From an uncultured Nitrososphaerota archaeon (GTDB lineage Archaea; Thermoproteota; Nitrososphaeria; Nitrososphaerales; Gagatemarchaeaceae), in contig CAVRAG010000007.1 in NCBI GenBank assembly GCA_963718895.1, positions 704,001-768,000 on the forward strand: 64,000 nucleotides of DNA, read 5' to 3'. Both the position numbers and the translations under genes were made by a program. The first letter of the stretch is position 1; the number at the start of each line of letters is the position of its first letter. The notes under the pieces are model-generated. The model saw nothing but the letters and a program-made list of their open reading frames with translations, made no database searches and was not told the DNA's origin. This document shows, piece by piece, positions 35,164-56,811 of this stretch.

Positions 35164-35446
35164 CTAGTTGCCCCCGTCCGGTCGAGGACGAGGACCGAGA
35201 TGCCCCCGATCGCGGTGAGCTCCTTGGCGATGACCATGCCCGTCACGGTCTTCCCGCTGCCGGTCCTCCCGAAGATGCACATGTGGTGGTTCAGGCTGTC
35301 CGCGGGATGGTGACGAGCCGGTCTTCTCGATGGTCGCGCTGGAGCTTGTAGACGGATGCGTCTCCCAGCGCGTCAACCCTGCGACCGAGGCGGATCTCTC
35401 TTCGCGGGGTTTGAGCGTCCCTCGATGGCTGGTCCGCGGTGGTCAT
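35164..35446 (-). pseudogene. Truncated HerA/DUF87 ATPase (cassette copy 1)
   Basis: RREIRLG..., HMCIFGRTGSGKT..., VLVLDRTG then stop; close match to 55997-56269. Confidence 0.8.
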
Positions 35447-35458
35447 AGCTGGCTCGGC

Positions 35459-35762
35459 TCACAGAAGCGCCGGGAAGAAGCAGAAGACCAGCACCATGAC
35501 CCAGATGAACGCCGCGAACCCCACGTTCGGCCAGAACTCGGGCTTTGAGACCTTGTGGTCGAACATCGCCCCTCCCGCGATTATCCCCGTGAAGCCCCCT
35601 GCGTAGGAGATGCCGAAGAGGGCGCGCTCGCTGATCCTGTTCAGGCCCACCTCGGCAGATGCCTTGTCGACCCCCATCGCCCCCAGCCCGAGGGCGGACA
35701 GCGCCCCGAGGTAGCCGAATAGAGCGTGCGGCGGGAAGATCGCGGCAGGCTATCGCGGCCAT
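35459..35762 (-). CDS. DUF1294 (YsdA-like) membrane protein, copy 1 (frameshifted)
   Basis: DKASA..RISE..LF...GG..G...FDHKVSK..F. Confidence 0.8.
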
Positions 35763-35771
35763 ACGGTTCCC

Positions 35772-35972
35772 CTACTCGACCCTGCAGACCGGGATGTCTC
35801 CCTCGTGAATCTCCGCCTTGCACTCGGGACAGACGAGCTCCTTGAAGAAGCGGCCCACCCTCTTGGGGCAGCTGTCGCAGTACGGCTTGCGGCAGCCTGG
35901 GCACTGCCACGCGATCCTGCCGCTGAACCCGCCGACCTCCTTGTTGCAGCAGAAGCAGAACCCTCGCACCAA
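35772..35972 (-). CDS. Small multi-CxxC zinc-finger protein, copy 1
   Basis: CFCC, CPGC, CDSC, CPEC; paralogue of 39723 and 56608. Confidence 0.85.
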   Translation of the reverse strand: MVRGFCFCCNKEVGGFSGRIAWQCPGCRKPYCDSCPKRVGRFFKELVCPECKAEIHEGDIPVCRVE

Positions 35973-36013
35973 TTCAGTATCTCACCATCGCACCCGACAA
36001 AAGCGCCCAAGTG

Positions 36014-36352
36014 TCAAGGTGGCGAGATGGTAGGAAGGTAAGGGAACAAGGTATAGGACAGGATCATCAGGATGATGCCCCCAATGAGCATCCCCTCCCC
36101 CGTCCGCCTCCACACGTGCCCCCAGTACAGGATGGCCCCTAGGGGGATCAGCAGGATGCCTGCGTAGAAGGCGACCAGGGTCGCGGCCGCGTCGATGCCC
36201 GTCACCGCGACGTGGAACTCTGCGGCGAACTGTTGCGCAAAATTCCCGACGGTCGGGCCGATGTTGGGGAGCGACTGTAGGCTCGAAGCCGAAGAGGTGG
36301 TTGCCGATGAAACTATCGATGAGGTAGCCGACGCGGTATCGTTGAGGCTCAT
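36014..36352 (-). CDS. Small two-TM membrane protein, VirB2/CedA1 pilin-like pattern
   Basis: S/T-rich N-terminus, TM, basic loop WRRTG, second TM with GGIIL. Confidence 0.6.
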   Translation of the reverse strand: MSLNDTASATSSIVSSATTSSASSLQSLPNIGPTVGNFAQQFAAEFHVAVTGIDAAATLVAFYAGILLIPLGAILYWGHVWRRTGEGMLIGGIILMILSYTLFPYLPTISPP

Positions 36353-36519: not shown

Positions 36520-37392
36520 CTATCGACGGAAGTCATCAAGGGAGCTGCCGGCACCCGGAACAACCTTCTGGCGGACCTCGGCGCGTGGCTCCATCCCGTA
36601 CCTTCGGATTAGGCTCGAGAGCCTCTCCTGAAGCTCCTCCCAGCCGGCGATGGCCGCCGCGAACTTGATCCCCGCCGAGTCTTCGAACATCTTCTTCGAC
36701 TCCTCGTAGCCGGCGAACCTCAGGAGACCGAACCGGACCGTGGAGACTCCTGCGCTCTTCAGATCCTCGAAGAGCCTCTCGAGGTCGACCATCACGATTC
36801 CAGGGATGACAGGCGCCAGGGAGACCCAGGTCGGTATCCCGGCTCCGGCGAGCCTCCTCAGGGTCTCTATCCTCCTCCGGAGAGGGGGGACGCCCGGCTC
36901 GAACTGCCTGACCGGAACGGTAGTTATGGACATCCCCACCTCGACGTCCTCGAACCTCTTGAGCAGCTCAAGGTCCCTGAGGACGAGCGGCGACCGGGTC
37001 AGAATGGAGATAGGGAAACGGTGCCTGAGGAGCGAACGGATGCACTGCTTGGTCAGACCGTACTTCGCCTCGACCGGCTGGTAAGGGTCCGACGCGCTCG
37101 AGAGGAAGACGGTCTCCCGCCTCAGTCCCCTGAGCTCCCTCTCAAGGACCTGCGGCGCGTTCACCTTCACGTCGACGTAGCTCCCCCACCCCCTCTCATC
37201 GTGGATGAGCGACGGGGCGTAGCAGTAGGTGCATCCGTGCGTGCACCCCCTGTAGAGGTTGGCGGTGTATTCAGTCGCCGACCCGTAGTTCATCTTGTGC
37301 AGCAGAGTACTGCACCTGACCTCCCTGACCGTGACCCTGGCCTTCGACCGGGTTGGAGGCGGCGTGGGCGTCTGGAGCGAGGTCGCGAGCAA
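36520..37392 (-). CDS. Radical SAM protein, spore-photoproduct-lyase-like
   Basis: YRGCTHGCTYCYA, SDPYQPVE, LTRSPLVLRD, APVIPG. Confidence 0.9.
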   Translation of the reverse strand: MLATSLQTPTPPPTRSKARVTVREVRCSTLLHKMNYGSATEYTANLYRGCTHGCTYCYAPSLIHDERGWGSYVDVKVNAPQVLERELRGLRRETVFLSSASDPYQPVEAKYGLTKQCIRSLLRHRFPISILTRSPLVLRDLELLKRFEDVEVGMSITTVPVRQFEPGVPPLRRRIETLRRLAGAGIPTWVSLAPVIPGIVMVDLERLFEDLKSAGVSTVRFGLLRFAGYEESKKMFEDSAGIKFAAAIAGWEELQERLSSLIRRYGMEPRAEVRQKVVPGAGSSLDDFRR

Positions 37393-37513
37393 AGGGAGAC
37401 CGCGGGAGCGTTCCGAGAATAAAAGGGGTCGAGTCGCCGAGGCTTGAACCGGGAGCAGGGGAGACTGAAAGTGTCATCCGAGGAGCGTGCCCTGACGGTG
37501 ATGTTAGTTAGGA

Positions 37514-39049
37514 TCACACGGCAGCCGAAGCGAGCAGGGCGCGGAAACTAGCTGGTCTAGACAGACCGGCGGGGAGCGGGTTTCCGGACTCGTCGCGCGG
37601 CCGGTCGGCCGTCGAATACGCAGGGCCGGCCCACGTGCCCTTCCCTATGTTATCGAGGGACTGGACCAAAAGGAACAGGGAGAGCCCCTTGCCAGTGGTG
37701 TCCGTGAAGGAAGGAGTCGGGCCCAGGATGCCTCCCCCAATCTGACCCAGAACCCTGCACAGTTCCCGCGCAGACCAATCCCCGGTCGCGGCGGTCCCAT
37801 CCCCAAGCCGCACCTCCGGGTATGAGGGCGCGTTCTTGGCTCCCTGGGGCACGCTCGTGATTATCTTGCGCAGGTTTTGCAGGGACGACCACACCTTGTC
37901 GTAGCCGTTGAAGATGTAGAGCGCCTTCCATCGCGCCATACGCCCCAGCGTCAACCTGGCCCGAAGCCACGGGTTCACCCAGTTGCCGAAGGTGAACTCC
38001 CTCAGGTACGGATATGGGTCGGAGGTCAGGACCAGGTCTATGCCCTCCGTGTCTATCATGTCGATCAGGTACGAGGGCGCGGCCATCCAGGAGAGCGAAA
38101 GGTCGGTCCACTCCGAGGGTTGAGGGCGATAGGCGCCGTACGGCGGGTATTCGTCGACGACGCCGTAGACGCCGTTCCACTGGGTCCCTGCCGTCGGCAG
38201 GGCGGGGCCGTCGGGGCTCACGGTGGCAAACTGCGGCATCGACGCCGGGCCGATCTGCGGGTCGTTGATGATGGGCTGCACCGCATCGCTGGCCGCGCCG
38301 AGTTTCCCTGCGTTCAGCCCGCGCTGGAAGATGTAGAACGTCAGGTACCCCAGGGAGTCGGCGGCGCTCGGCAGGTCGCTCTTCACGATTCCGTGGACGC
38401 TCTGGGTGTAGAGCGAATAGAGGAAGTTCGCATGCCCTATGAAGTCGTCGTTGTACTGCGACAGGAAGGTGCTGAACGTGGGCTGCTTGGGGTCGATGAA
38501 GTTGACCAGGCTCTGAAGCGTCAGGTACGATTGAATCGCGAGCGACAGGTATGGACGGAAGGTGCGCGGGTCCGCGACCGTGGGGATACCTGTGGGGGCT
38601 GCAATGCTTTGAGCCTGCGGAAGCTTCCCATACCACAACTGCGTGTATGGCGGGGCGGTCTGGGGGGCATTCGGAGGGATGTTCGTGAGGCCCTCGTCCC
38701 CGTATGGATAGAGGGTGGCATACCATATCTTGCTGTAGGGTGAGAATCTCAGCTCTTGGAGGTCCGGCCGCTGCCAGAAGGCGCCCCAACTATCGGGAGG
38801 GATGAGGTTGTCCGGTCCCGCGGCCGCCGAAGGGACCAGGTTGCCCACGAATCCATTCGCATTGTCGTGATACTTCGCCGCGTCCCTCGTGACGTAGTTT
38901 CCCCTGGTCCCCTGGGCGCCCAGGTCGTCGAAATCGGTTTGCAGGCCTCTCCGCCGCCCGGCTAAAGCGTCCTCCCGTCGCTCTGTACCGGCTCCACCAG
39001 GAAGCGCGGACAGAACGAGAGCGACTGGCCTCTGATGCGGCCCTGACAC
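37514..39049 (-). CDS. Hypothetical protein (possibly N-terminally truncated)
   Basis: 511-aa ORF rich in Trp/Pro/Tyr, no recognised family. Confidence 0.6.
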   Translation of the reverse strand: MSGPHQRPVALVLSALPGGAGTERREDALAGRRRGLQTDFDDLGAQGTRGNYVTRDAAKYHDNANGFVGNLVPSAAAGPDNLIPPDSWGAFWQRPDLQELRFSPYSKIWYATLYPYGDEGLTNIPPNAPQTAPPYTQLWYGKLPQAQSIAAPTGIPTVADPRTFRPYLSLAIQSYLTLQSLVNFIDPKQPTFSTFLSQYNDDFIGHANFLYSLYTQSVHGIVKSDLPSAADSLGYLTFYIFQRGLNAGKLGAASDAVQPIINDPQIGPASMPQFATVSPDGPALPTAGTQWNGVYGVVDEYPPYGAYRPQPSEWTDLSLSWMAAPSYLIDMIDTEGIDLVLTSDPYPYLREFTFGNWVNPWLRARLTLGRMARWKALYIFNGYDKVWSSLQNLRKIITSVPQGAKNAPSYPEVRLGDGTAATGDWSARELCRVLGQIGGGILGPTPSFTDTTGKGLSLFLLVQSLDNIGKGTWAGPAYSTADRPRDESGNPLPAGLSRPASFRALLASAAV

Positions 39050-39050
39050 C

Positions 39051-39227
39051 CTAACTTATCAGGACAATGTGCTTCCCGCGCTCGAGTCCCTCTGCTTTTT
39101 GCATGCACTCCTCCTCGGTGAAGCAGACCTCGATGTGTGGGGCGTGAATCTTCGCTATCTCTCGAATCTCTGCCTGTTCCAGCCCGCTGGTCACCAGGAA
39201 TCGGAGGTACGCCACGTCGTGCTTCAT
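39051..39227 (-). CDS. Small hypothetical protein or remnant
   Basis: MKHDVAYLRFL... after a purine-rich upstream sequence. Confidence 0.35.
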   Translation of the reverse strand: MKHDVAYLRFLVTSGLEQAEIREIAKIHAPHIEVCFTEEECMQKAEGLERGKHIVLIS

Positions 39228-39289
39228 GGCGTCCTCTTCGTTGCTCAAGAACTCAAAAATGGGGGCTCCTGAGGTAAAAAGCCTTCCTC

Positions 39290-39395
39290 GGCCTAACGTA
39301 TGCCATCGACAGTTGTCGAACCAGCGGCCCGCGCGTATCTCCCTCCGGACGGGGTTCTTCGGCGGCTCTTCGAATCGGTTGTCCAAGCGCGCCAC
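39290..39395 (-). pseudogene. HerA N-terminal stub (cassette copy 2)
   Basis: PVRREIRAGRWFD matches RREIRLG of the other HerA copies, at the same position after DUF1294. Confidence 0.55.
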
Positions 39396-39398
39396 TGC

Positions 39399-39709
39399 TC
39401 AGAACGAGACGACCCACGGGAAGAAGTAGAAGGCGAGGAACGCGCCCAGAGCGCCCAGGCTACCCCTACCGGGAACCAGAAGCCGGGCTTCGAGGTCTTG
39501 TGATTGAAGAAGAGCCCCCCGAGCGTTATGCCCGCGAACCCTCCGAGAAGGGCGATGAAGGCGAGGCTCTGTTCGCTCATCCTGTCCAACCCGATCTTGG
39601 CCGCAACCTTGTCGGCGAGCATGGCGCCACCACCGACAAAGGTCATGACGAGGAGCACGTCCTCGAGGACCTGCGGGGAGATCACGGAAGCCAGGTTGGC
39701 GGCAGGCAT
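39399..39709 (-). CDS. DUF1294 membrane protein, copy 2 (late frameshift)
   Basis: ADKVAA..DRMSE..LA.IAL.GG..G...FNHKTSK..FW. Confidence 0.85.
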
Positions 39710-39722
39710 AGGTGTTGACCCC

Positions 39723-39926
39723 CTAGGTGATCTTTGGCACCGGGATGCCGCCCTCGTGCATCTCTATCCGGCACTCGGGGCAGACGAGCTTCTTGAAGAA
39801 CCGGCCCACCTTCTTCTTGGGACAGGTGTCGCAGTAGAGCTTGCGGCAGGACGGGCACTGCCATGCGATCCTCCCGCGGAACCCGCCGACCGCCCTGTTG
39901 CACTGGATACAGTAGCCTCGGACCAA
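39723..39926 (-). CDS. Small multi-CxxC zinc-finger protein, copy 2
   Basis: CIQC, CPSC, CDTC, CPEC; GTTAAAT box about 25 nt upstream. Confidence 0.88.
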   Translation of the reverse strand: MVRGYCIQCNRAVGGFRGRIAWQCPSCRKLYCDTCPKKKVGRFFKKLVCPECRIEMHEGGIPVPKIT

Positions 39927-39978
39927 AGCACCATAGAATTCTGAAGGATGATTTAACCCCCAAGCAACCAGGCGATTG

Positions 39979-40194
39979 TCAGACAGCTTTCAGAAGCTTA
40001 GCCTTCACGTCCGGTTTTGTTTCCCTTGGAAGCAAGAGTTCCAGGTCCAGCAGTTCTCCCTTCGCGTCCTCGTCCAGGATCACGTTCTCCGCGAGCGGCT
40101 CGCTGGAGGACACCTTCCCTCTTCTCAGCCGCAGGTAGAGGGCACCCGCCTCTTCATCAAATTCCAGTGGAGCCATACCTTTTTGCGCCCTCAT
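39979..40194 (-). CDS. DUF2283 family antitoxin
   Basis: FDEEAGALYLRL...ILDED..G.L..LELL. Confidence 0.85.
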   Translation of the reverse strand: MRAQKGMAPLEFDEEAGALYLRLRRGKVSSSEPLAENVILDEDAKGELLDLELLLPRETKPDVKAKLLKAV

Positions 40195-40408
40195 TGTCAG
40201 CTTTCAGAGCCGTTATCACTATTAAGCCTTCATCACTCTCCTCGATGATCACGATGGTGAAGCTGCCATCCAAACGAGACGCGCACGAGGCCTTCCTTCC
40301 CTGCTTTGTGTATCTCGCTTCGAGAGGACGCACGATTGCTTCCCCGACTTCCATCTTGGTTACTCCGCGCTCCAACATCCTCTTCTCGGCGTGAGGGGTG
40401 TACCTCAT
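40157..40408 (-). CDS. DUF4258 family toxin (RelE-like)
   Basis: YTPHAEKRMLERGV...VITA; paired with DUF2283. Confidence 0.85.
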   Translation of the reverse strand: MRYTPHAEKRMLERGVTKMEVGEAIVRPLEARYTKQGRKASCASRLDGSFTIVIIEESDEGLIVITALKADNEGAKRYGSTGI

Positions 40409-40430
40409 CGGTCACAGCTCGAAACCTCAT

Positions 40431-40563
40431 TGGCCCCTAAAACCGTCATTGCAATGAGGAGACGCCCAAAGACGCGCAAATGACTCTCCCGCCCTAAACG
40501 AGAGACGATACACAGGAATTACCTGCGCCGCAAGACATGACCACGAGCGCAGGGGTCCTTCAC
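40431..40563 (+). ncRNA. Dispersed non-coding element, copy A (3' truncated)
   Basis: 39/41 nt match to copy D (40471-40511 vs 59077-59117), then CACAGGAATTACCTG...ACGAGCGCA shared with B/C; TGGCCCCTAAAA box. Confidence 0.55.
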
Positions 40564-40813
40564 TGAACCCACCCCGACACGCCTGTTGCGCTGGGAGCAA
40601 GCCTCTGACCAAACCAAGATGGAATCTTGAGGCGCAATTCAACCGCAAACCGGCGGAGCATCGTGGGACGATCTCTCCACCCTGGTTTGTCAGCGATGAC
40701 GAGAGGTCCCTTGAGCCGGGATACCCACTATCTTCTCTCCGAGTTTGGTCAGGACGAGCACGCCTAGCTCATCATTCGGCTCAGCGCGGTCCTCCGCCGA
40801 ATCGCGCTTTGGC

Positions 40814-41671
40814 TCAGGTCCTCTGCCCGGAAGGAGGCCGCCAGTCGCTGCATCTGGGGCATATCAGGAAGAACTTCGATCCGCTGACGATCTTGAACGA
40901 TGGAGCGCTGCATGTCGGGCATTGGGCCTCTTCCTCCTTCCAGTGCACCTCGAGGCCACGTTCCTTGAGCCAGTCAACGACCGAGAGCACCGTTGGGTCG
41001 GTCAGCATCTCGACGGGTAAGTCTTCGTAGTACTCGACCGCCAGCTTCAGCCTCTCGAACTGGCTCGGAGAGATTTGCCCGTTGAGCGAGTGCCTTGCGA
41101 AGACCGCCGTAAGGCGCTTCCGCTCATCCCCGTCCGCGAGCTTCGTGTCGACGCCGGAGAGCAGGACAATGCACACGAGCGAAACAGCGGCGATGAGCCC
41201 GTAAGGGCTCTGGAGAAACAGTATTGGCAGTCCGACGTAAGGGATGGTGACGGCCGGCACGCCCAGGACGCTGGTCGAGTCTGTGACGAACGGGTCCGGG
41301 GACAGGTTGTTGTCTCCCTTCGTATCGTAGTACGTCACCCCGTTGGCCTCCTGACCGACCCCCACGACCCTGTGGATCACGACAGGCTTCAGGAACGAGT
41401 CGAGGGCCGGAATCCCAGATGAACCCTGAACGAAGACGATGATGCTGCCGTTCGCGATCTGTCCCCGCGGGGCGGTGAAGAAGATGAGCTCACCGTTCTG
41501 GAGCTTGGGGTACATGCTGTTCCCCTGTACGATAGCGACCGGATAGGTGGTCGTCCCGGCGATGAACGGAAGTGCGGCGAGAGTGACAAGTAGGCCGAGA
41601 CTGAGCATGAACAGCAAGCGCCGTTTGTCGAATTTCATTTCCAAAGTCTCCGTTGTGACCATTCTTCTCAT
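40814..41671 (-). CDS. Signal peptidase I (S26, SipW/Sec11-type) with C-terminal zinc-ribbon domain
   Basis: GNSMYP, IHRVV, TKGDNN..PD; C-terminal CPTC/CPRC. Confidence 0.9.
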   Translation of the reverse strand: MRRMVTTETLEMKFDKRRLLFMLSLGLLVTLAALPFIAGTTTYPVAIVQGNSMYPKLQNGELIFFTAPRGQIANGSIIVFVQGSSGIPALDSFLKPVVIHRVVGVGQEANGVTYYDTKGDNNLSPDPFVTDSTSVLGVPAVTIPYVGLPILFLQSPYGLIAAVSLVCIVLLSGVDTKLADGDERKRLTAVFARHSLNGQISPSQFERLKLAVEYYEDLPVEMLTDPTVLSVVDWLKERGLEVHWKEEEAQCPTCSAPSFKIVSGSKFFLICPRCSDWRPPSGQRT

Positions 41672-43617
41672 GCCCTGTATGTATAAGCCACCTCGAACAG
41701 CGTGGGTTTCGGTGAGCCCCAGAAGATTGTTAGAGCTGCCGACGCTGGCCCGGTTATCACGACCTCGATGTAGCCCGAGGCCGGTACTGTCCCAGCAGAA
41801 GAGGACACAGAGAGAGGCTGGTAGAGCGCGGTCGTCGCCGCGGGCGAATTACTGGCCATCGTGGACTGGACTGTGCCGGCCGAGTCCGTCGTGTAGTACG
41901 AGACTGTGACCGTCTGGGGTGCTGGCATTATCGCGTCGCACAGGGCGCCCCAGTACGTCGTAGACTTCCCGAATGCGCACGATGAAGAGGACAAAGAGGA
42001 GGTCGTTGCAACGTACTCTACAGCGTTCGAATAGCCTACTCCCGCCTCGGTGGCGACGAGAGTGGCCTTTGTTACTCCGATGGTTCCAGCCGTCTCCGTG
42101 ACCGATGTATGGGTGCCAAAGAGCGAGAAGACGAAGTCCGTCTCCGAGACCGTCGAGACGCTAGAGACCGTCGGCGCGGCTGAGGTGGAACTGCAGGAGG
42201 AGACTGCGGCGTCCGGCAGACCCGAGGCGGGGTCGAAGGGAGTGATAGTGTCCGCGCCGGAGACCGCGATGGCGATTCCCGAAGCAGCGGTCGTGGTCGG
42301 AGTCGACGCGAGTTGGACCGTTATCGTGTCCGACGAGAGGGCGGAGGACGCTATCCCGTACCACTCGACCTCCGTGCTCTCCTGCGCGCCGGTGCACACC
42401 GTGTAGGAGTGCCGAGCAGACGACTGCCACGTTATCGCGCTGGCAGAGTCTGATATCGAGGAGACCGCGACGGAGGAACCAGAGTGGTAGGTGACTATCG
42501 AGAGCACGACCACATCGTTGGCATCAGTCGTCGTTAACGACGAAAGGGCGAACGAGGTCCCAGAGGACCAAGTCCCTTCTGCGCTTCCATCCACCGCTGG
42601 CGCGGGCATGTCTGCGAAGAGCTGCAACGACAGTGAGGATGCGGGAATAGACTTTGCTGAAGCGAATTGAGGCGACCAGAGATACATGCTCTCCCCCGCG
42701 GGGAGGGTGAAGCTGGCACTTGAGACGACCGCGTCGCAGATGTCGGCCCAATAGGTCGTTGTCTTCCCGAAGGTGCACGTGATGCCGGACTCGACCGTTG
42801 AGACGACGCTGTACTCCACGGCGAGGGAGTATCCCCTTCCCGCTACGGTACTCAGAAGCGTCGCGGCCGTGGCGCCGATGTTCCCGGCGCTCTCCGTCTT
42901 CGACGTGTAACCGCCGAAGAACGCGATTACGAAGTCGTTGGCGTTCGCGGTCGAGATGGTGTCGCTCGGGTCCGCTGCGGTGGACGAGCAGTCGTTCCCT
43001 ATTGTGCCCCCGTTGGCGGAGGTGTCGATCGGGCTGGATGTGGCTGCGCCGGAGATTGCGACGGCCTCGGCCGAGGCAGCGGTGGGAGTCGCGCTGAGTG
43101 TGATGGTTATCGTATCCGAGGAGAGGACGCCGGAGGCTACACCGTACCACTGAATGTCAGTGGTCTCTTGTGTAGAACTGCAGTCAGTGTACTCGGTCAG
43201 GAAACTGGTCCGCCAGCTTACCGCACCGGCGGTGTCTGTGACGGAGGAGACCGTTATCTCGCTGGCCGACTTGTATGTTACCACGTTGAGGAGAATCACG
43301 TCCGACGTATGGGCCGTGGTCACCGACGTTATGGTAAACGAGGTAGCCGAGGACCACGTACCCGTCCAGTTACCGTCCGAGGAGAGCACTGAGGTCCTGG
43401 TGGGCTCGGTGGTCTGAGTGTCGACGGTGAGGCAGGGCAAGGTGCACCCGGCCACAGGTGCGTTGACGTTCTCGTAGTAAGGGTTCAGAAAGGTGCCTGC
43501 GAAGTCGGCGCCGGTGCTCTTCAGAATCGTCACGTTGGCCGCGGCAGCGACAATGAGCATCGTTGTGGCTGCGCCAGACAGAAGGAGCAGCCGCCACTTC
43601 AGGTTCTGCGAACCCAA
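41668..43617 (-). CDS. Secreted S/T-rich protein with two internal Cys-containing repeats (candidate fibre adhesin/minor subunit)
   Basis: Signal peptide; two repeats, each starting GTWSS.TSF and ending CxFGKxTTYW..xCDA. Confidence 0.8.
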   Translation of the reverse strand: MGSQNLKWRLLLLSGAATTMLIVAAAANVTILKSTGADFAGTFLNPYYENVNAPVAGCTLPCLTVDTQTTEPTRTSVLSSDGNWTGTWSSATSFTITSVTTAHTSDVILLNVVTYKSASEITVSSVTDTAGAVSWRTSFLTEYTDCSSTQETTDIQWYGVASGVLSSDTITITLSATPTAASAEAVAISGAATSSPIDTSANGGTIGNDCSSTAADPSDTISTANANDFVIAFFGGYTSKTESAGNIGATAATLLSTVAGRGYSLAVEYSVVSTVESGITCTFGKTTTYWADICDAVVSSASFTLPAGESMYLWSPQFASAKSIPASSLSLQLFADMPAPAVDGSAEGTWSSGTSFALSSLTTTDANDVVVLSIVTYHSGSSVAVSSISDSASAITWQSSARHSYTVCTGAQESTEVEWYGIASSALSSDTITVQLASTPTTTAASGIAIAVSGADTITPFDPASGLPDAAVSSCSSTSAAPTVSSVSTVSETDFVFSLFGTHTSVTETAGTIGVTKATLVATEAGVGYSNAVEYVATTSSLSSSSCAFGKSTTYWGALCDAIMPAPQTVTVSYYTTDSAGTVQSTMASNSPAATTALYQPLSVSSSAGTVPASGYIEVVITGPASAALTIFWGSPKPTLFEVAYTYRA

Positions 43618-43651
43618 CCGATCACCCCTGGGCTCACTTCCCGGCCCGCTC

Positions 43652-44164: not shown

Positions 44165-44188
44165 CTCCCCAAGACCTCCTCCAAGCTC

Positions 44189-46702: not shown

Positions 46703-46742
46703 TGGGAACGAAGAGAATCGGTGCGGTCCGGAAGGACGCCTC

Positions 46743-49443: not shown

Positions 49444-50583
49444 CAGCGGCGCCGGCCAGCGCCGAGGTCAGCCGCTCGATGATGACTGAGACGTCCACCT
49501 CACTGAGACACTGCGGGTTGATGAAGATCGCTCTTCCGATAGAGTAGAGTTTGATGGGCGGGTCGCCGCTCTCGAGTACTCGAACTAGCTCCTCGACGGG
49601 GACGGAATACGGATCCTGTTCGACCTTGATTCGGGGGATGGTCAGCGGTCTTATCGTGTCTTCCGGGCCCGGCATTACCCTCTTCACGTTCAGGTGCGGC
49701 AGCTTTGACAGGCCGTCCACGAGAGAGTCGATGATCCTCTCGCATCTCTCCAGCCTCTCCTTGCTTCTCGCAGGATAGGTTCTCAGGGCGACGATCAGGG
49801 CCGCGATGTCCTCCTTGCTCGTCTTCATCGGCCGCCCAAGGAAATACGTGCGTTGCCCGTTGACGGTCGCGGAGTAGTACGGTCCAAGAGAGAAGCACGC
49901 GTCCACCAGGCTCTTCCTGCCGCAGACGAACCCCGTGTCACTCGGACCTCCAATGTCCTTCCCCCCGCTGAATACCACCAGGTCTGAACCCAGCGAGATG
50001 TACCGCCGGAGGTTCTCCGCCGGAGGGAGCTCGGCGGCCGCATCTACTATGACCGGTACGCCGCGAGAGTGCGCAAGTTCGATGACCCGGTTCAGCGGCA
50101 CCACGGATTGTTGAGGGCCGAAGTCGATGTACAGGATTGCCGCCGTATCAGTCCCTATCGCCGCTTGCAGCTCTTCCTCGGTCGTTCCTTGGGGACTTCC
50201 CACATAGACTGTCCGGCCTCCCGCAATCTTGACGAGCGTGGTGTAGACGCTCCTGTGCGGCGCCTGGACCAAGACTCGCAACGTAGGCCTTCGTTTTCCG
50301 GCAGCATGCTGGCAACCTCGAGGTCCCCCCTGGAGATACAGGCGACGACCGACATCATCAGGCCGGCGGCCGCGCCCGAGACGACGTATGCGGATTCCGC
50401 GCCTGTGATCCCGGCTATGACTTCACCTGCCTTCCTCTGGAGCTCATCCATGAATACGAATGACAGGGCGGCTTCCCTCATCGCCTGCGTCACTTCTGGG
50501 TCGAGCGTGTTGCCACCCAACGACGTCAGAGTTCCGGAGCCGTTGATGACCTTCCTCACTCCCAGCTTCTCGTAGACGTCCAT
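49418..50583 (-). CDS. SelA-like PLP enzyme (DgaE/UPF0425-like), frameshift near 50280
   Basis: VINGSGTLTSLGG, VSGAAAG, VDAAAE, FSGGKDIGGP, GRPMK. Confidence 0.85.
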
Positions 50584-50672
50584 TGTCCTGTCCCGCCGGT
50601 CAACATCGATACTTATGCCTGTTTCGACGGGCGGGCTCCTGCACTTATAATGAGAGCTGTGCGCTCCTCCGC

Positions 50673-51480
50673 ATGGGAATCTCGAAGAAGGTAGCCCTCG
50701 TCACGGGGGCGGCGTCCGGGATTGGTGAAGGAATAGCTCTCCATCTCGCAAGAGAGGGCGCCTCGGTCATAGTGGCAGACGTGGACGAGGTCAAGGGCGA
50801 GAGAGTCGCCGCACGAATCTCGAAGGGGAAGGGCGATGCCGTCTTCATCAGAGTGGATGTCTCCAATCAGGGTGAGGTCAAGGCGGCGCTTGCGAAGTGC
50901 AGGAAGAAGTTCGGCGGCCTCGACATCCTCGTAAACAACGCCGGCATCAACGTGGGCTTGAGCAGCGGTCCGAATCCTACAGGGTGCCCGAAGAGATATG
51001 GATCGTACCATCGATACCAACCTGAAGGGAACGTTCCTCTGCACAAAGTATTCTGTGCCGCTCATGAGGAAGAGGCAAGGCGGGTCGATAATCAACATAT
51101 CTTCGATGCTGGGGCTCTACGCCATCCCAGGGGCGTCCTCTACTGCGCCTCCAAGGGAGGATCATATCGCTCACGCGGGCGACAGCCATGGACTCCGCGA
51201 GGTTCAAGATAAGGGCAAACTGCATCTGCCCTGGTGCGATCAAGACGCCGGCCTTCGGAAGGGCGTTCACCGACCCCACCGAGCTGCGCCGTCTCTTTGC
51301 GATCTATGAGAAAGGGTATCCGGCCAAGCGCATAGGGGAACCAAAGGACATCGCGTCTTTGGTGGCCTATCTGGCGGATGAGGCCTCCTCGTTCATCACT
51401 GGGTCCGTCATAACAATCGACGGCGGCATGCACGCCCAGTACGGCGAAGCGCTGCTGAAGATGAGGATTGACGGGATAAT
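50673..51480 (+). CDS. SDR family oxidoreductase (frameshifted, end approximate)
   Basis: TGAASGIG, NNAG, YCASKG, NCICPG, ITGSVITIDGG across three frames. Confidence 0.85.
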
Positions 51481-52553
51481 CTATCGCTCTCGCTGCCCGG
51501 ATGGAGCCACTTGTACTTGTACTCCTGACCGCTCATCGAGGATTTCTGCACTAGGAGGCCGAGGAGCTCAACGAGGTTGGCGTGCTGCGTCATGGGCACG
51601 TCGTCCGCTCCCGGGTCGAGCAGGCCGGGACCGCCGTTTATGGCACCCGCCGCGGCGCAGTAGGCCTGCGTCTGCAACTCAATCTGTCTGTCGTGCAAGA
51701 CCGCGGGTTTCTGCAGCAGCGCCGAAAGGCAGGCCTCTATGCCGTAGGCGCCCCAGTTCGAGATCGTCGCGGTGACCAGCACCTCCGTCGCGATGTTGGA
51801 GGCCGAGCCTCCCTGGCAAGGGCACTTGCACTCCCCCGAGAACGGGACGTACTTCAGGACCGAGTCTCTTATGAGACCACAACCTAGCTCGTTCCCCCCA
51901 TCCCCTATCCCGATAGTCAGCGTGCCCTGAGCCGTAGCCGAGAGAAACATGCTGTCGGGTTTGGCGAGGTACTTTGAGATGTTTATCCCAGTCAGCCCGT
52001 GATATTCGCCCTTGACGTTCTGCGACGGTCTCTCAATCGCAATGAGCGCGGAGGGGTTGAGTTCCTTAAGCATTCGTTCCCCGGCGGCGGCCGCCTGGTT
52101 GGATTCCGTAGTGAATTCGACGATAGATGCGAGTCTCGGAAGCCTCAGCACCTCGTCTATAGAGCCCACGTTCAGACCCGAGCCAGCGAGTGCGGCCTTG
52201 GTTATCCCCACGTTGAAAGAATCCGTCACAAGCACCACCTTGGCGTCCAGCCCGAGTACCAGGGCGCGCGCAAGGGTCGCTGCGCCGACGGGGCCATCCT
52301 GCTCTCCGACGGTGAACCACGGCGGACAGGCGAACCCAGTCGTGATTATCACCACATCATTCGCCTTGACACATTGCGCCAGCCGTTGGGCCGCGAGCAT
52401 CGTAATCGGAAAGTTACCCTGCTTCTCCCTCGCCGCACCATAGAGTTTGTCGATAACGCCGCGGCACGAGATGTCCGCTGTGATCAGTCGATCGACGGTA
52501 TTGCCCAGCACCTGGTGGTGTTGCGACACGGAGTGGGAATCGCTTTGGTCCAT
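51408..52553 (-). CDS. D-glutamate cyclase family protein (DUF4392)
   Basis: TTGF, EQDGPVGA, IERP, IGDGGNELGCG, SNWGAY. Confidence 0.88.
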   Translation of the reverse strand: MDQSDSHSVSQHHQVLGNTVDRLITADISCRGVIDKLYGAAREKQGNFPITMLAAQRLAQCVKANDVVIITTGFACPPWFTVGEQDGPVGAATLARALVLGLDAKVVLVTDSFNVGITKAALAGSGLNVGSIDEVLRLPRLASIVEFTTESNQAAAAGERMLKELNPSALIAIERPSQNVKGEYHGLTGINISKYLAKPDSMFLSATAQGTLTIGIGDGGNELGCGLIRDSVLKYVPFSGECKCPCQGGSASNIATEVLVTATISNWGAYGIEACLSALLQKPAVLHDRQIELQTQAYCAAAGAINGGPGLLDPGADDVPMTQHANLVELLGLLVQKSSMSGQEYKYKWLHPGSESDRLSRQSSSSAALRRTGRACRRRLL

Positions 52554-52621
52554 CTTGATCTCCACCTCACGGCCTCTTCCATCTCGCAACATCAACCTTT
52601 GGTCCGAGGTCGAGTGCCCTT

Positions 52622-54530
52622 CTATCCGAATGTGACGGTATTGAAGAGCGGGGAGGTGTCCGCGCCCTGGAGCATCGGGTCTAGGTAGAAGTTCTTGACT
52701 ACGCCTGTCTTCCAGACGAGTGAACCGCTTCCCTGCCAGAGTTTCACGACGGCCACCCACGCGTATGGGGCATCTGCGTTGATCTGCTCTTGCGCCTTGG
52801 TGCAGAGCGCGGCTATCTGGGTCTGGTTCGCGTCCGTGGTGAAGGCGTTCACGCAGGCCTGGACGGTTGGAGTGGAGTAGGCCGCAAAATCTCCATAGAG
52901 TGAGCTGTTGCTGACAAAGGATATCCAGTCATCCGCCGGGGTCAGCGCGTTCAGCGTCCACGTGGGAGCCCCGTTCAAGATGTTAATCTGCCCAATCTCC
53001 TGGGCGTTCTGAACGTTTGTGGTGTAGCTGCCGAAGAGCGAGGTGTACTCGCCGAAGGTCTCAGTGACGATGTTGGTTTGTATCCCTATGTTGGAAAGGT
53101 CCCCCTGGGATCAGCTGCGCCTCATCGGTGCACGAACCGCAGTTCGCAAGTATCCTGATGGCGAGCGTGGGCATTGTCTTTACGTCAGCGGCCGCAAGGT
53201 AGTGCTGCGCCAGCGTCACGTTGTAGGAGTATGGTTGCGCACCACCCAGGTCGTAGAAACTCCCGAAGAGCGGAGCCTCCGGACCGACGAATTGCGACCC
53301 TTGTCCGAGCCAGACCTTCTGGATTATCTGGCTGTAGTTGATCGTGCTGGACTATTGCGAGTCTCACATCTGTGATATTGGTAGGATAGCTCTGCGTATT
53401 CAGGTCGACGAAGTTGACCTGGGCTCCGAGCCCGCTCGTCGCGACGTAGGAGTACTCGTTAGGGTTCGCGTCACAAGGTTCCAGTCCTGCGCCATTATCA
53501 TAGCAACCTGCGCCGTCCCTGTGCTGAGGTCTGTGTATCGTGTGACATCATCGGGCTTGTAGTTTATGACGACGTTCTTGACGTGGCCCGGATCGAACAT
53601 GGGCTGCGCTGCTATCTGCGCTGGTGTGAGGCTGTCCCCCCAGTATGTCGGATTCTGCGCGAAGGTCACGAAATTATTCTCAGACACCTGTGTGACGACG
53701 TACGGGCCTGTACCGGGGATTGGATGCTGGTTGAAAGCCGTGTTGTAGTTTCCTGGTGTACCGAAGCCACCATTGTTGAGTACGTACTGCGCGTCAAAGA
53801 CCTGACTCATCCAGGGCACCAGCAGTCCGAGGAACCACTGGAAGGGTGCTTGCAGGTGGAAGACTATCTGGTTGGGACCGGTAACATAAATCGGCCAATG
53901 GTTGTTCTCCATCACGCTCAGGGCCGCCGACGAGGGCGAGGAGAGTCCTGACTTCGTCAGAGTTGAGAGCGTCGACGAACCGAAGTTCACGCTACTCATG
54001 TTGAAGACATCGTAGGAGTTGAACCAGGAGGAGGCATTCCCGGATACGTAGTAGAGCCCGTAGAGTTCAGCCCATACCTGATATGCGTTGAAGGGGTCAC
54101 CATTGGAGAAGGTCACTCCTTGCCTCAGATTGAGGGTGTAGGTCTGTCCGCCGTCCGAGACGGTCCAGTTGTCGGCCAGGCCAGGCATGTATTGGATACT
54201 ACCAGTCTGGTACTCGGCCGTGAGGTTGACAGCGACTAGCGGCTGGTACACAGTGATTTCCTGCCAGTCAGGATAAGGCGCCAAGTTGACTGTGTCAAGC
54301 GCGTTCAGGTCGCCAGTCGGCCAAATCCAGTCGTCAATGGTGAGCGTCTGTGGCGCAGACGCGCTAGAGCTGCTCGAGGCTCCCTGGGAAGATGAGGAAG
54401 GGGACGAAGATGGACTCGACAGCGAGGCAGCGTAATAGATACCGACCGCGGCTACTACAATTATGACAATGAGGGCCAGTGCAATCATCGCTCGGCCCAC
54501 GGCGATTCGACTTTCGGACCCAGCAATCAA
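52622..54530 (-). CDS. Peptide/nickel ABC substrate-binding protein, family 5 (frameshifted)
   Basis: PGLADNW, LRQGVTFSNGDPFNAY, IPGTGPY, NPTYWG; C-terminus in ORF 52622..52978. Confidence 0.82.
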
Positions 54531-54759
54531 ACGGCCTGGACTTTGGCCATTGTGTCTTAAGTCTTTCGAGAAAGCAGTCTGCGAAGCACTTTCGACAGGG
54601 TCATAATCACGAAATCGGCAGCCAAGAAACCTTGGATGCTCACTTAGTCTAGGCTTGCGGGGACCCAGAGGACCTCAACTTCAGGGTCGTTCCGTTTGGA
54701 GCGGAGACCGGTTCGGGACATCAAATGATGACGCATTGAGGCTCCAGACTCCTCGACGG

Positions 54760-56269
54760 TCAATCACGGGCTGCGGATACGACGGCGATCTTCTCTCCGA
54801 GCTTCGTGAGAACGAGAAGGCTCCCCGACATCTCAGCTATTGCAAAGCTACCATGTACCATCTGCTTCAACCGTTTGTTGGAGTAACCCTGCTGGGAGAG
54901 CCTCTTCCTCGGGACCTTGCCTCCTGAATTGTGGATGAGCTTGGCCGTGTCCCTAGCCCAGGCCGGCAATTTGTCGTAGACCTTCCAGGCCGAATCACCG
55001 TCAGGAACCCCTTCCAGTGAGATTGGAGGTGTTTTCGGACTCCCTACTATTGGGTGATTCTGATTTGGCAGATTTTGCGTCGGGGCGAATAGGAAACTGT
55101 GCTCCGGGAGGCCCACCATGCACCCCACCGGAATGTCAGTACTGGCGTCGTTGAGCTGGACCAGGCACTCTCCCACCTCCAGCTTGCGAAGGTCTGATGC
55201 GAACTTGTCCGCCTCCAACCTGCTCACCATGTAGTTCAGCGCGAGGTCGACGTCCTTGCCGCTGGTCATCGAGTGGCAGACTATGGTGTTCGAGTTGGAG
55301 ATGATGTCCTCGCTGACTTGTGTCGGCCGCGTTGCCATGACGACCAGCCCCATCCCGTACTTCCTCAGCTCGGTGGCGTACCTCTCGAGGATCCCCTCGT
55401 AGTCTCGCCTGGCGGGAGCAATGTGGTGCGCCTCGTCGACCATGAGCACGAACCTGAGCGCCTTGGTCCACCCGAGCCTCTTGCCGCGGGTGATGAGGAG
55501 CTTGCAGAGGACCTGGGAGACCATGTTCCTCGCCTCGTCGGACTCCAGCGGGCCGAGGTTGACGATGCGCAGGCCCGGCGCGAAGAGCTCGGACTCGTCC
55601 AGCGGTGGCGCGTCGGTGTCGAAGACCCGCGCCAGGGAGCCGCTCGCCAGCGGCCTGAGCCGGGAGACCACAGCCTCGTTCCCCTCGAGCCAGCCCTTGA
55701 CCTTGGTCCGGGACTCCTCGCCCTGCGCCCTGAGCTCCGAGAGGACATCGGAGAGCCGGGAGGTGTCGGCCCCGTAGCAAGACTTCAGGGCCTCGCCGAG
55801 GGCGCGCTCCTGGTACGGGGTGAAGGTGATGCCCCTGAAGGAGCTGCCGACGTAGTGGTGCATCAGGGATATGGCGCGCTCGACGTCGTCGTCGCTGTTG
55901 TCGGACCTGCGGGCGAACGGGGAGAGCGTGAGGTTGGTCCCGGGCGTGTAGACGGTCGCGCTCGGGAGAGAGGCTAGTGGTGAATGGGCGAACTCGCCGG
56001 TCCGGTCGAGGACGAGGACCGAGATGCCGTTCATCGCGGTCGAGCTCCCTGGCAATCACCATGCCCGTACCGCTCTTGCCGCTGCCGGTCCTGCCGAAGA
56101 TGCACATGTGGCGGGTGAGGCTGTCGACGGGGATGGTAACCGGGGGTCTCTCCGGCGATTGCCCGCGTTGAAGACCGTAGGTGGATGCGTCTCCTGGCGC
56201 GTCGACGCGACAACCGAGGCGGATCTCACGTCTCCCGGCGGGCGGCGATTGCTGATTCTGAAGGGGCAT
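54760..56269 (-). CDS. HerA/VirB4-like (DUF87) ATPase, cassette copy 3 (1-nt insertion near 56041)
   Basis: HMCIFGRTGSGKS, VLDRTGE, VDEAH, ELRKYG; C-terminal winged-helix-like tail. Confidence 0.88.
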
Positions 56270-56285
56270 GGAGACTGGCTCACTC

Positions 56286-56603
56286 TCAGAGGTTCACGAC
56301 ACCGGGGAAGAAGTAGAGCACGAGGAACGTGAGCCAGAGCAGGCCCGATGCGCATATCGTGACCCAGAAGTATGCCTTGGTGGTCTTGTGGTGGAAGAAG
56401 AGCCCGCCGAGTATCACGCCTGCGACCCCGCCGGCGAGGGCGATGTGCGCGAGGCTGCGCTCGCTTATCCTGTCGAACCCGATTCGGGCGGAAGTCTTGT
56501 CGGCGAGCATGGCGGCTCCGCCGAGTAGGCTCCAGACCAGGAACCACTCACCGAGAAGCCGCTCGGGGATCATGGAAGCGAGGTTGACGGGGAGCATTGC
56601 CAT
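56286..56603 (-). CDS. DUF1294 membrane protein, copy 3 (intact)
   Basis: ADKTSA..DRISE..LA.IAL.GG..G...FHHKTTK..FW. Confidence 0.88.
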   Translation of the reverse strand: MAMLPVNLASMIPERLLGEWFLVWSLLGGAAMLADKTSARIGFDRISERSLAHIALAGGVAGVILGGLFFHHKTTKAYFWVTICASGLLWLTFLVLYFFPGVVNL

Positions 56604-56607
56604 CGCC

Positions 56608-56811
56608 CTAGGCGGTCTTGGGGACCGGGATGCCGCCTTCGTGCATCTCTATCCGGCACTCGGGACAGACGAGCTTCTTGAATAAGCGCCCCACCTTCTT
56701 CTTAGGGCAGGTGTCGCAGTAGAGCTTCCGGCAGCTAGGACACTGCCAAGCGATCCTCCCGCGAAACCCGCCGACCTCCTTGTTGCACTGGATGCAGAAT
56801 CCTCGGACTAA
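56608..56811 (-). CDS. Small multi-CxxC zinc-finger protein, copy 3 (start codon reads TTA, so missing from the ORF track)
   Basis: VRGFCIQCNKEVGGFRGRIAWQCPSCRKLYCDTCPKKKVGRLFKKLVCPECRIEMHEGG; same length and promoter box as copy 2. Confidence 0.8.
   Translation of the reverse strand, partial: LVRGFCIQCNKEVGGFRGRIAWQCPSCRKLYCDTCPKKKVGRLFKKLVCPECRIEMHEGGIPVPKTA

Follow-up and report, generated by a model that had tools for sequence, protein, structure and literature searches.

Three diverged, paralogous gene cassettes lie on the minus strand of the 64,000-nt window, by which we mean the whole stretch of DNA from a soil archaeon that was analysed here. Each cassette has the same gene order: a zinc-finger protein (ZnF) of 66-67 aa with four CxxC pairs, followed by a DUF1294 membrane protein and a HerA-like (DUF87) ATPase. 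In its full form the cassette comprises four genes, which encode an optional protein with two transmembrane segments (2-TM protein), the 66-67 aa ZnF with a double zinc ribbon, a DUF1294 protein with ~3 TM segments and a HerA-clade P-loop ATPase of ~500 aa. The initial annotation had reported the three-gene order in triplicate, and coordinates and domain scores confirm it. It had also regarded the copies as too diverged for an assembly duplication, and this explanation is indeed excluded by their DNA identity of 72-85%.

Copy 3 is the complete trio once an assembly indel is discounted. Its ZnF gene (56608..56811, frame intact) is followed by an intact DUF1294 gene of 105 aa (56286..56603; PF06961, 54.8 bits) and by an ATPase gene of about 502 codons (54760..56269; DUF87, 32.9 bits for the N-terminal part) that encodes Walker A, Walker B and a C-terminal winged helix and shares 83% identity with the intact 526-aa orthologue P0008. 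The cassette type of copy 1 begins with the 2-TM gene (36014..36352; 112 aa, Ser/Thr-rich N-terminus), which precedes a ZnF of 66 aa with four CxxC pairs and a TTG start (35772..35972), a DUF1294 frame of 96 open codons (35459..35749; PF06961, 46.5 bits) with an ATG-started ORF of 72 aa (35459-35677), and a HerA-like stub that retains the N-terminus and Walker A (35130..35446; DUF87, 30.2 bits). This stub matches residues 1-48 and 48-92 of P0008 in tblastn; homology stops with 'LDRTG' at about residue 92, beyond which 13 codons of unrelated sequence lead to the stop, and the ORF ends at 35130, directly ahead of a luciferase-like gene (34125-35111). Copy 2 consists of a 67-aa ZnF with a TTG start (39723..39926), a DUF1294 gene that forms a 138-aa ORF as assembled (39293..39709; PF06961, 48.8 bits) and a vestige of the HerA N-terminus of about 27 codons including 'REIRAGR' (39315..39395). 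The vestige was located by three-copy DNA alignment and is fused within the 114-aa ORF 39051-39395, for which no Pfam family was found. The staggered truncation of the ATPase described earlier is genuine for copies 1 and 2, the former lost beyond about residue 92 and the latter reduced to about 27 codons, against the ~35 claimed.

In the assembly, the DUF1294 frame of copy 2 is broken at about 39444, and the ATPase of copy 3 is split over two frames with the junction near 56041. Five sequencing runs from two studies, all labelled DNA, contain part of the stretch, and four were compared as contigs. Short-read contigs of two soil runs have an extra C behind 39444, which restores the frame to an end at TGA 39399-39401, and those of two other soil runs have one base fewer at 56041, which restores the ATPase frame. 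Both frameshifts are probably errors of an indel-prone assembly, and for these two positions the short-read contigs led us to reject the view that all three copies are decaying pseudogenes. Seeming pseudogenes in a long-read-type assembly can be indel errors, which calls for caution. The assembly sequence of copy 1 contains two further frame breaks, one at the start of DUF1294, whose ancestral ATG (35762) does not match the reading frame, and one near 35303, around codon 48 of HerA. The start position of the copy 3 ZnF is TTA in the assembly and TTG in copies 1, 2 and relatives, with a TAG three codons upstream; the cover of the short-read contigs compared excludes the TTA at 56811. We counted this lack of a canonical start codon in the assembly against the preferred reading of the cassette as a conflict-type module.

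The strong conservation ascribed to the ZnF was borne out, with eight Cys in every copy and a pairwise amino acid identity of 70-91% (copies 2 and 3, 91%). The dN/dS was 0.11 for copies 2 versus 3 (16.0 synonymous vs 8.0 non-synonymous differences) and 0.31-0.40 for copy 1 versus the others, and it was 0.44-0.68 among the DUF1294 copies, which indicates purifying selection on the small genes instead of neutral drift. This basic protein contains two zinc ribbons, and Lys/Arg/Glu-rich tails or a second zinc ribbon are seen in some relatives. The family is very narrow, with 44 matching cluster representatives among 1.84 billion proteins; 24 of 61 related genomes have a member, among them 19 of the 22 of the same genus. 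The best scores against known zinc-finger families (B-box, IBR, C1, FYVE, DUF4379) were 18-19.5 bits, below the cut-offs of 24-27. The fold model was of moderate confidence (pLDDT 69.5), and nothing in the PDB matched it at E ≤ 0.001 in a fold search, the top rows (E ≥ 0.2) being ribosomal zinc ribbons and RING/U-box domains. PADLOC returned no match for ZnF or DUF1294.

DUF1294 was likewise recovered in all three cassettes, as claimed, each copy scoring above the Pfam gathering cut-off of 25 bits for PF06961, and a whole-genome search with this model returned the same three places. The gap between ZnF and DUF1294 is 10-20 nt, or the genes overlap. DUF1294 is a lineage-specific and optional part of the cassette, and outside this genus it occurs without the ZnF. 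Five loci in three other genomes carry a ZnF-DUF1294 pair without an adjacent cassette-type ATPase, which fits the suggestion that the pair may work alone. A complex prediction for the copy 3 DUF1294 with its own ZnF scored 0.00 and gave no answer for or against such a complex. The 2-TM protein, with hydrophobic segments at residues 57-75 and 88-106, matched no Pfam or PHROG family. In the metagenome loci L076, L080 and L089, homologues with 87-90% identity immediately precede ZnF-DUF1294-HerA, and a core paralogue is present in a housekeeping context in 34 of 36 family genomes. In view of this core copy, a pilin-like reading of the 2-TM protein is unsupported, and its two segments make it at most a candidate for a VirB2/CedA1-like two-helix pilin. 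At locus L086, a different ORF with 4-5 TM segments takes the place of DUF1294 between ZnF and ATPase.

Matches to PF01935 (DUF87) by P0008 (52.3 bits) and, with the lower scores given above, by copies 3 and 1 assign the ATPase to this superfamily. The P0008 model (pLDDT 88.5) shows a core at residues 1-395, a disordered linker and a helix-strand, winged-helix-like domain at 427-507. The HerA of S. solfataricus (PDB 4d2i) was the best sequence match (E 2.4e-12) and also the best fold match (E 1e-17). Its alignment begins at HerA residue 133 and query residue 45; Walker A lies at about residue 60, and the model has one short strand ahead of the core. Since 4d2i is aligned from residue 133 onward, the ATPase lacks the HAS barrel; it is a HerA-clade motor with a C-terminal winged helix. 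An alignment of 40 ATPase sequences showed no variation in Walker A, Walker B or the Arg residues, with G60, G63, G65, K66, S67, D279 and E280 invariant, and a hydropathy scan detected no hydrophobic segment in the protein. The initial annotation had called the protein HerA and had noted that HerA/VirB4 ATPases act in DNA transfer and antiphage systems; it falls below the cut-offs for HerA, CedB, CedD, VirB4 and antiphage HerA. For bona fide HerA the scores were 63.4 vs 800 bits (NF040937) and 46.2 vs 970 bits (NF040819), and for antiphage HerA 47.9 vs 800 bits (NF042943) and 37.8 vs 850 bits (NF042944); CedB, CedD and VirB4 are treated below. PADLOC yielded only generic HerA (up to 79 bits) and mad8 matches, while antiphage HerA complexes and the DndH C-domain were among the top fold matches. 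The genome also contains a separate housekeeping HerA.

The full trio recurs in the same-genus genome G011 and in four metagenome loci (L076, L079, L080 and L089), in agreement with the expectation that it is conserved outside this genome. The close ATPase subfamily was confined to 4 of the 97 family genomes (G000, G005, G011 and G025), and a scan of genome contigs with the G005 ATPase gave a match only on the query's own contig. Among metagenome loci with at least 400 nt upstream of the ATPase, 17 of the 18 with a subfamily-1 ATPase had a ZnF ahead of it, but none of the six with an ATPase of the second subfamily did. DUF1294 stood between ZnF and ATPase in only four of the 18, so that the closest link joins ZnF and ATPase instead of ZnF and DUF1294, the pair initially suggested to work alone. 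Across lineages the ZnF constantly heads the cassette, almost everywhere directly ahead of this ATPase subfamily, and the membrane gene is swappable or absent. As for the proposed association with the membrane, DUF1294 or the 2-TM protein is present in some loci, but in 12 of the 17 ZnF-bearing loci no such membrane gene separates the ZnF from the ATPase, which means that a membrane-coupled mechanism is not general. ATPase fragments flank ZnF genes in three genomes and three metagenome loci, which points to fast turnover. The cassette is a small accessory unit of a family of soil Nitrososphaerales ('Thaumarchaeota'), and it appears to be undescribed, as suspected, since no description of it was found in the literature searched.

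The surroundings of the cassettes vary between loci and often include toxin-antitoxin, OLD-like, methylase and IS genes. DUF4258/DUF2283 genes lie beside copy 2 and an OLD/GajA-like nuclease gene beside copy 3; near the cassettes of relatives we found HicAB, PycTM, an N6/N4 methylase, an AAA_15 ATPase and a group II intron. By a raw count, however, no gene of recognised defence, toxin-antitoxin or mobile type was present within some 5.5 kb at about six of 14 accessory loci, so that the association with islands is suggestive but not established.

Several known systems share elements with the cassette. HerA-NurA is the archaeal DNA end-resection helicase. Archaeal HerA (PDB 4d2i) has the same DUF87/RecA-like core, Walker motifs and Arg residues, but the cassette ATPase lacks its N-terminal HAS barrel and has the extra winged helix, and no NurA, Mre11 or Rad50 was detected by Pfam scans among annotated neighbours in the window or at related loci. 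SIR2-HerA/Nezha, DUF4297-HerA, TdpAB and DndH likewise combine a HerA-type ring ATPase with a dedicated partner gene in variable regions; their HerAs, however, contain a HAS barrel, and in the cassette the place of a SIR2 or DUF4297 nuclease is taken by a 67-aa zinc ribbon, sometimes joined by a small membrane protein. Neither nuclease was found as a neighbour in the same Pfam scans. As for bacterial proteins that fuse a cold-shock domain (CSD) to DUF1294, we know of no function for them either. Such fusions, reported in the accessible text of PMC7404187, also join a small nucleic-acid-binding module to DUF1294, much as the basic ZnF gene stands directly ahead of DUF1294 here, and provide a precedent for a nucleic-acid-binding partner of this domain; they differ in being fused proteins rather than the products of two genes, and in carrying an OB-fold CSD where the cassette has a zinc ribbon.

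Taken together, we tentatively favour, at somewhat less than even confidence, the reading that the cassette is an accessory ZnF-plus-motor module of conflict or defence type with swappable small membrane partners. The ATPase would form a HerA-like ring whose RecA-like core and winged helix would bind and translocate DNA. As the dedicated small partner of the ATPase, the basic ZnF, which probably binds nucleic acid, may act as an adaptor, a sensor or a regulator. DUF1294 and the further small membrane proteins may be optional membrane anchors or effectors. Genetic conflict, through defence or the control of mobile DNA, seems the most likely role, rather than housekeeping repair or Ced/T4SS-type transfer. 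An ordinary cellular role would fit as well, since core paralogues of the ZnF and of the 2-TM protein exist in housekeeping contexts.

It is unlikely that the genes form no complex at all, with variable operons headed by the ZnF as a small DNA-binding transcription regulator and with DUF1294, the 2-TM protein and the ATPase following as independent cargo. Such a role would agree with the ZnF being the sole constant gene, basic and with two zinc ribbons, which persists under purifying selection while downstream genes decay. Its core chromosomal paralogue adjoins unrelated genes (order PAC2-ZnF-MFS), and the homology between copies 2 and 3 takes in about 40 nt upstream of the start. Yet the ZnF is tied to one ATPase subfamily and not to its sister, a linkage more specific than expected of a generic regulator, and the close spacing of ZnF and DUF1294 also argues against it, although such spacing is typical of operons generally.

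We consider it improbable that the cassette is a membrane DNA-translocation module akin in function to Ced/Ted/T4SS or FtsK-type pumps, in which DUF1294, with or without the 2-TM protein, would form the membrane part, the ZnF would tether DNA or motor and the HerA-like ring would pump DNA in or out. Like CedB/CedD of the crenarchaeal Ced DNA import system, the cassette ATPase is a HerA-clade protein of a TACK archaeon encoded next to small membrane proteins, and small membrane proteins do occur in the operon of one lineage, with a different one at L086. CedD (NF053655) was its top NCBIfam match at 98.6 bits, VirB4 was among the structural matches (target-normalised TM-score 0.71), and the CSD-DUF1294 fusions could be seen in the same light. 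CedD and CedB carry their own TM segment (PMC11868833), and the separate membrane gene of the cassette could stand in for it; the family features used in this comparison are those given in PMC11868833 and PMC9905601. The CedD similarity is generic, however, and was rejected as a sign of specific kinship: it lies far below the cut-off of 600 bits, the same model scores the housekeeping HerA of this genome higher (110 bits) and also matches in E. coli and other control genomes, and own-genome searches with the CedD and CedB models gave nothing above cut-off. CedB (NF041017; 18.8 vs 700 bits) and VirB4 (TIGR00929; 46.9 vs 643.1 bits) were matched still less well, and the ATPase has neither a TM segment nor a VirB4-like N-terminal domain. 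A hydropathy scan of ORFs revealed no 6-7-TM CedA/VirB6-like channel near the cassettes in the window, where polytopic proteins are of ABC/DMT type only and far from the cassettes. Almost all family genomes carry the core copy of the 2-TM family next to housekeeping genes, and most ZnF-ATPase loci lack an intervening membrane gene. A link to T4SS/Ced-type DNA transfer was accordingly not upheld, the ATPase being below these cut-offs and T4SS/Ced parts being absent nearby in the window.

Equally improbable is that the cassettes are what is left of a decaying integrated plasmid or virus, in which the ATPase would have been the motor for packaging, partition or transfer, and that they have no host function. 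Patchy distribution, many truncated copies, nearby IS and toxin-antitoxin genes and the abundance of HerA-like helicases in archaeal islands speak for it. Against it stand the lack of any integrase, capsid, replication gene or tRNA in the window, PHROG matches to generic ATPases only, neighbours that differ among loci, purifying selection on the ZnF and invariant catalytic residues in 40 ATPase sequences. The helicases in question, arCOG00280, rank among the commonest families in the 'dark matter islands' of archaea, and a role as viral DNA pumps was suggested for them; like the cassette ATPase they are HerA-like, and they are enriched in variable, fast-evolving islands, but the accessible text of that study mentions no zinc-finger or DUF1294 partner (PMC4158269). 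A provirus or other integrated element at the locus itself was rejected as a candidate, as no tRNA was found, an Rfam search of 34000-62000 gave no match and the PHROG matches were uninformative.

To our knowledge, HerA-family ring ATPases, which act in DNA repair, Ced DNA import and antiphage immunity, always come with a defining partner; for DUF1294, a widespread membrane domain, we know of no function, and we are aware of hardly any characterised accessory systems in soil Nitrososphaerales. The preferred reading in its strongest form, a new archaeal conflict or defence system that combines a 67-aa double zinc-ribbon protein and a HAS-less HerA-type motor with interchangeable small membrane proteins (DUF1294, the 2-TM protein and the one with 4-5 TM segments) as effectors or anchors, is unlikely. 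If true, it would give DUF1294 its first functional context and would add, in Nitrososphaeria, a third partner type after SIR2 and DUF4297 for HerA-based immune systems. The recurrent two-to-four-gene cassette is a concrete biochemical target, with the question whether the motor is loaded, gated or localised by the ZnF.

Three cassettes of identical gene order are located on the minus strand of the window, which belongs to a genome of 3.13 Mb in 11 contigs. Each begins with a gene for a small zinc-finger protein (ZnF; copy 1, 35772-35972, 66 aa; copy 2, 39723-39926, 67 aa; copy 3, 56608-56811) with eight cysteines in the pattern C-x2-C-x14-C-x2-C-x4-C-x2-C-x13-C-x2-C, followed by genes for a DUF1294 membrane protein and a HerA-like ATPase. 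The ZnF proteins are pairwise 70-91% identical, the DUF1294 proteins of the three copies score 46.5, 48.8 and 54.8 bits against a Pfam cut-off of 25, and DUF87/HerA was recognised by Pfam in copy 3 and, as a stub, in copy 1. The DNA identity between the copies is only 72-85% (ZnF, 82-83% across the three copies and 85% between copies 2 and 3; DUF1294, 72% between copies 2 and 3), which makes them old paralogues rather than a duplication introduced by the assembly; the triplicated order of diverged copies reported in the initial annotation is confirmed. The staggered truncation of HerA described there was likewise recovered. A complete ATPase is encoded only in copy 3 (54760-56269, minus strand). 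In copy 1, homology to P0008, the intact 526-aa orthologue of this ATPase, stops at about residue 92, after 'LDRTG', and 13 unrelated codons lead to a stop at 35130, adjoining a luciferase-like gene (34125-35111), while in copy 2 about 27 HerA-derived codons are left within an ORF at 39051-39395. Both truncations are structural and real. Elsewhere in the window, a 110-aa ORF with low GC3 (0.43; 25171-25503, minus strand) shares a 50-aa segment, at 60% identity, with the winged-helix part at the C-terminus of the ATPase of copy 3, and this ORF is either a stand-alone winged-helix-domain paralogue or a fourth remnant.

The assembly also contains frame breaks in the HerA gene of copy 3 (near 56041), in the DUF1294 gene of copy 2 (near 39444) and at two places in copy 1. 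We compared the region 37000-56900 with contigs from four short-read soil-metagenome runs of one study. Contigs from two runs carried an extra C behind 39444, which restores the DUF1294 frame of copy 2, and those from two other runs had one base fewer at 56041, together with G>C at 56039, which restores the HerA frame of copy 3; the 'pseudogenes' at these two breaks are probably intact. With five more single-base indels in the region, the affected places are 39444, 48230, 51487, 52562, 53347, 53472 and 56041. Hence, either the assembly is prone to indels or the population is polymorphic, and several seemingly split genes may be assembly errors rather than pseudogenes; candidates are a gene for an SBP_bac_5 protein (53400-54530 with 52622-52978) and aminotransferase and adh_short fragments (49418-51212). 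The ZnF start codon of copy 3 reads TTA in the assembly, at a base without short-read contig cover, and TTG, GTG or ATG in the other copies and in relatives.

The small genes are under purifying selection. For ZnF, dN/dS was 0.11 between copies 2 and 3 (dS 0.50) and 0.31-0.40 against copy 1, and for DUF1294 it was 0.44-0.68 between copies; neutral evolution, which the initial annotation had named as speaking against its module, thus does not apply to the small genes.

ZnF was detected in 24 of 61 related genomes. The count includes 19 of 22 genomes of the same genus and 4 of 14 from the family's other genera, against 0 of 24 from other families of the order. Two types can be distinguished: an accessory type, found in the cassettes, and a core type, whose synteny (PAC2 chaperone, ZnF, MFS transporter) is kept in the source genome and in the relatives G004, G010 and G015. 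In the source genome (G000), this core gene is a fourth ZnF paralogue, located outside the window at C7:567259-567420 between the PAC2 proteasome-chaperone and MFS transporter genes and split by a frame break in the assembly. The close ATPase subfamily (subfamily 1, at least 51% identity) is rare within the family (4 of 97 genomes), and DUF1294 is rare within the class (6 of 301 sampled genomes), with no ZnF gene beside it at the six loci of the other five genomes. The cassette is conserved beyond its source, since the full trio is present in the related genome G011 and at the metagenome loci L076, L079, L080 and L089. ZnF-DUF1294 pairs without an adjacent ATPase occur in G021 and G003 (two loci each) and in G002, genomes that are 69-85% complete and in which only the second ATPase subfamily was detected. 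In the source genome, this second subfamily is encoded at C8:879198-880418 and 893387-894526 (35-38% identical, about 380-400 aa), without ZnF and among HicAB-like, PIN-like and retropepsin-like ORFs; its relatives adjoin a ~135-aa protein and a membrane protein of 280-346 aa.

A metagenome scan with the profile of the subfamily-1 ATPase yielded 39 loci, of which 26 belong to subfamily 1, 10 to the second subfamily (34-41% identity) and 3 are distant. Eight subfamily-1 loci cut at a contig end were left out, and among the remaining 18, which include the N-terminus of the ATPase and 400 nt or more in front of it, ZnF lies upstream of the ATPase in 17 (the exception is L109). It does so at none of six second-subfamily loci with the same minimum of upstream sequence; several loci are near-identical, and the counts therefore do not represent independent events. 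Between ZnF and ATPase, the four metagenome loci with the trio carry DUF1294, L086 carries another ORF, of 132 aa and with 4-5 hydrophobic segments, and the other 12 showed no membrane gene of such kind. The ZnF gene is thus the constant head of the cassette, its link to one HerA subfamily is specific, and the small membrane genes are exchangeable. The alternative that ZnF is a general-purpose regulator followed by cargo genes unrelated to it appears unlikely.

Besides local REARRANGEMENT, the comparison revealed a fourth gene, for a 112-aa protein with two transmembrane segments (2-TM), directly upstream of ZnF-DUF1294-ATPase at L076, L080 and L089. It is 87-90% identical to window positions 36014-36352, and copy 1 is therefore of the four-gene type. 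At L080, the order DUF4258-DUF2283-ZnF fragment-2TM-ZnF-DUF1294-ATPase equals that from copy 2 to copy 1 of the window minus ~3.5 kb, with an ATPase uninterrupted for 300 residues up to the contig end, which shows recombination among copies of the cassette. ATPase fragments adjoin ZnF genes in three further genomes (G025, G034, G007) and at three further metagenome loci (L090, L105, L111); gain, loss and truncation of cassettes are fast. The 2-TM protein had been considered as a VirB2/CedA1-like pilin, an assignment that we withdrew because members of this protein family were detected in 34 of 36 family genomes, with the core copy next to housekeeping genes.

Walker A, Walker B and Arg residues are invariant across 40 ATPase sequences. 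In the AlphaFold model of P0008 (pLDDT 88.5), residues 1-395 form a RecA-like core, which a disordered linker connects to a helix-strand domain (427-507) of winged-helix-like appearance. In sequence and fold, the top PDB match is HerA of S. solfataricus (4d2i); the alignment begins at 4d2i residue 133, which means that the HAS barrel is missing. Next come DndH-C, SIR2-HerA, HerA-NurA, TdpAB, DUF4297-HerA and VirB4. The ATPase stayed below all NCBIfam equivalog cut-offs compared (CedD 98.6 of 600 bits, HerA 63.4 of 800, antiphage HerA 47.9 of 800, VirB4 46.9 of 643, CedB 18.8 of 700). CedD was rejected as a specific relative, since its model scores the housekeeping HerA of the genome higher and also matches unrelated control genomes, making the match generic. 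An 874-aa ORF 1 kb past the window end (G000:C7:769043-771667) has a C-terminal HerA/DUF87-like ATPase part that scores 62 bits against the CedD model; it has a 281-aa ORF behind it and adjoins Ser/Thr kinase-FHA and PP2C genes (window 61995-63951).

ZnF matched no Pfam family over cut-off, and its model, predicted to form short beta hairpins (pLDDT 69.5), had no significant PDB match. The family is very narrow: across 1.84 billion proteins, 44 representatives matched at E <= 0.001. Its members include proteins with Lys/Arg/Glu-rich tails, with an additional zinc ribbon or with a fused methyltransferase. In one library representative (P0134, 455 aa), ~380 aa are inserted within the second CxxC knuckle; this insert, with Cys at its start, His-Asn at its end, a Cys behind it and a LAGLIDADG_3 domain (33 bits) inside, resembles an intein within a protein of ~70 aa.

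The neighbours of the cassettes vary by locus. In the window, copy 2 has a DUF4258/DUF2283 pair and copy 3 an OLD/GajA-like nuclease gene as neighbour, and positions 44863-45510 hold a fragment of an IS4/5 transposase; in relatives, nearby genes encode HicAB, a DUF2283 protein, eCIS-core proteins, a PycTM protein, an N6/N4 methylase, an AAA_15 ATPase and a group II intron reverse transcriptase, and at some other loci metabolic genes alone surround the cassette. No integrase, tRNA, virus hallmark or polytopic channel protein was found near the window cassettes. Set between this result and the missed cut-offs on one side and the small membrane genes and the VirB4 fold match on the other, a membrane DNA-translocation device is improbable. 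Equally improbable are selfish mobile-element remnants, for which the transposase fragment and fast turnover have to be weighed with the lack of an integrase and the purifying selection.

A conserved non-coding element at 40428-40511 and 59034-59117, upstream of the DUF4258 gene on the copy 2 side and of the OLD-like gene on the copy 3 side, shares a ~40-nt core, 97% identical between both, that contains an imperfect inverted repeat; a third copy lies 7.5 kb past the window (G000:C7:775506-775544). It had no Rfam match and a fold stability not above shuffled sequence, and may be an operator or insertion-site motif. In a cluster at 40814-44701 (minus strand), a signal-peptidase-like protein of the S24/S26 type (285 aa, zinc ribbon at the C-terminus) is encoded together with a secreted, Ser/Thr-rich protein of 649 aa and a tandem pair of 170-aa paralogues (80-83% DNA identity); only the peptidase has a Pfam family. 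Near the transposase fragment, a 137-nt direct repeat (45924-46060 and 48055-48191, 94% identical) bounds ~2 kb with a HicB-like/Arc-like ORF (46743-47426) and a 3-TM ORF (47387-47701). Three tandem repeats of ~654 nt (59838-61343, plus strand, 71-75% identical) lie within and just before a 525-aa ORF (60153-61730), for which Pfam gave no family and which has a hydrophobic segment at its C-terminus.

A full-text search on DUF1294 gave nothing on archaea or HerA, judged by title and abstract, and no description of the cassette was found in papers on CedD/Ced (PMC11868833, PMC9905601) and on thaumarchaeal integrated elements and HerA, zinc ribbons and defence islands (PMC6563490, PMC4158269). 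The earlier idea of a membrane-associated module whose ZnF-DUF1294 pair may work alone or share one ATPase was partly right: such pairs do stand without an adjacent ATPase. Tentatively, we favour a ring ATPase that would act on DNA, with ZnF as its adaptor or regulator and the membrane proteins as optional anchors or effectors, possibly in genetic conflict. In this cassette, the HerA-plus-partner theme takes a new form.
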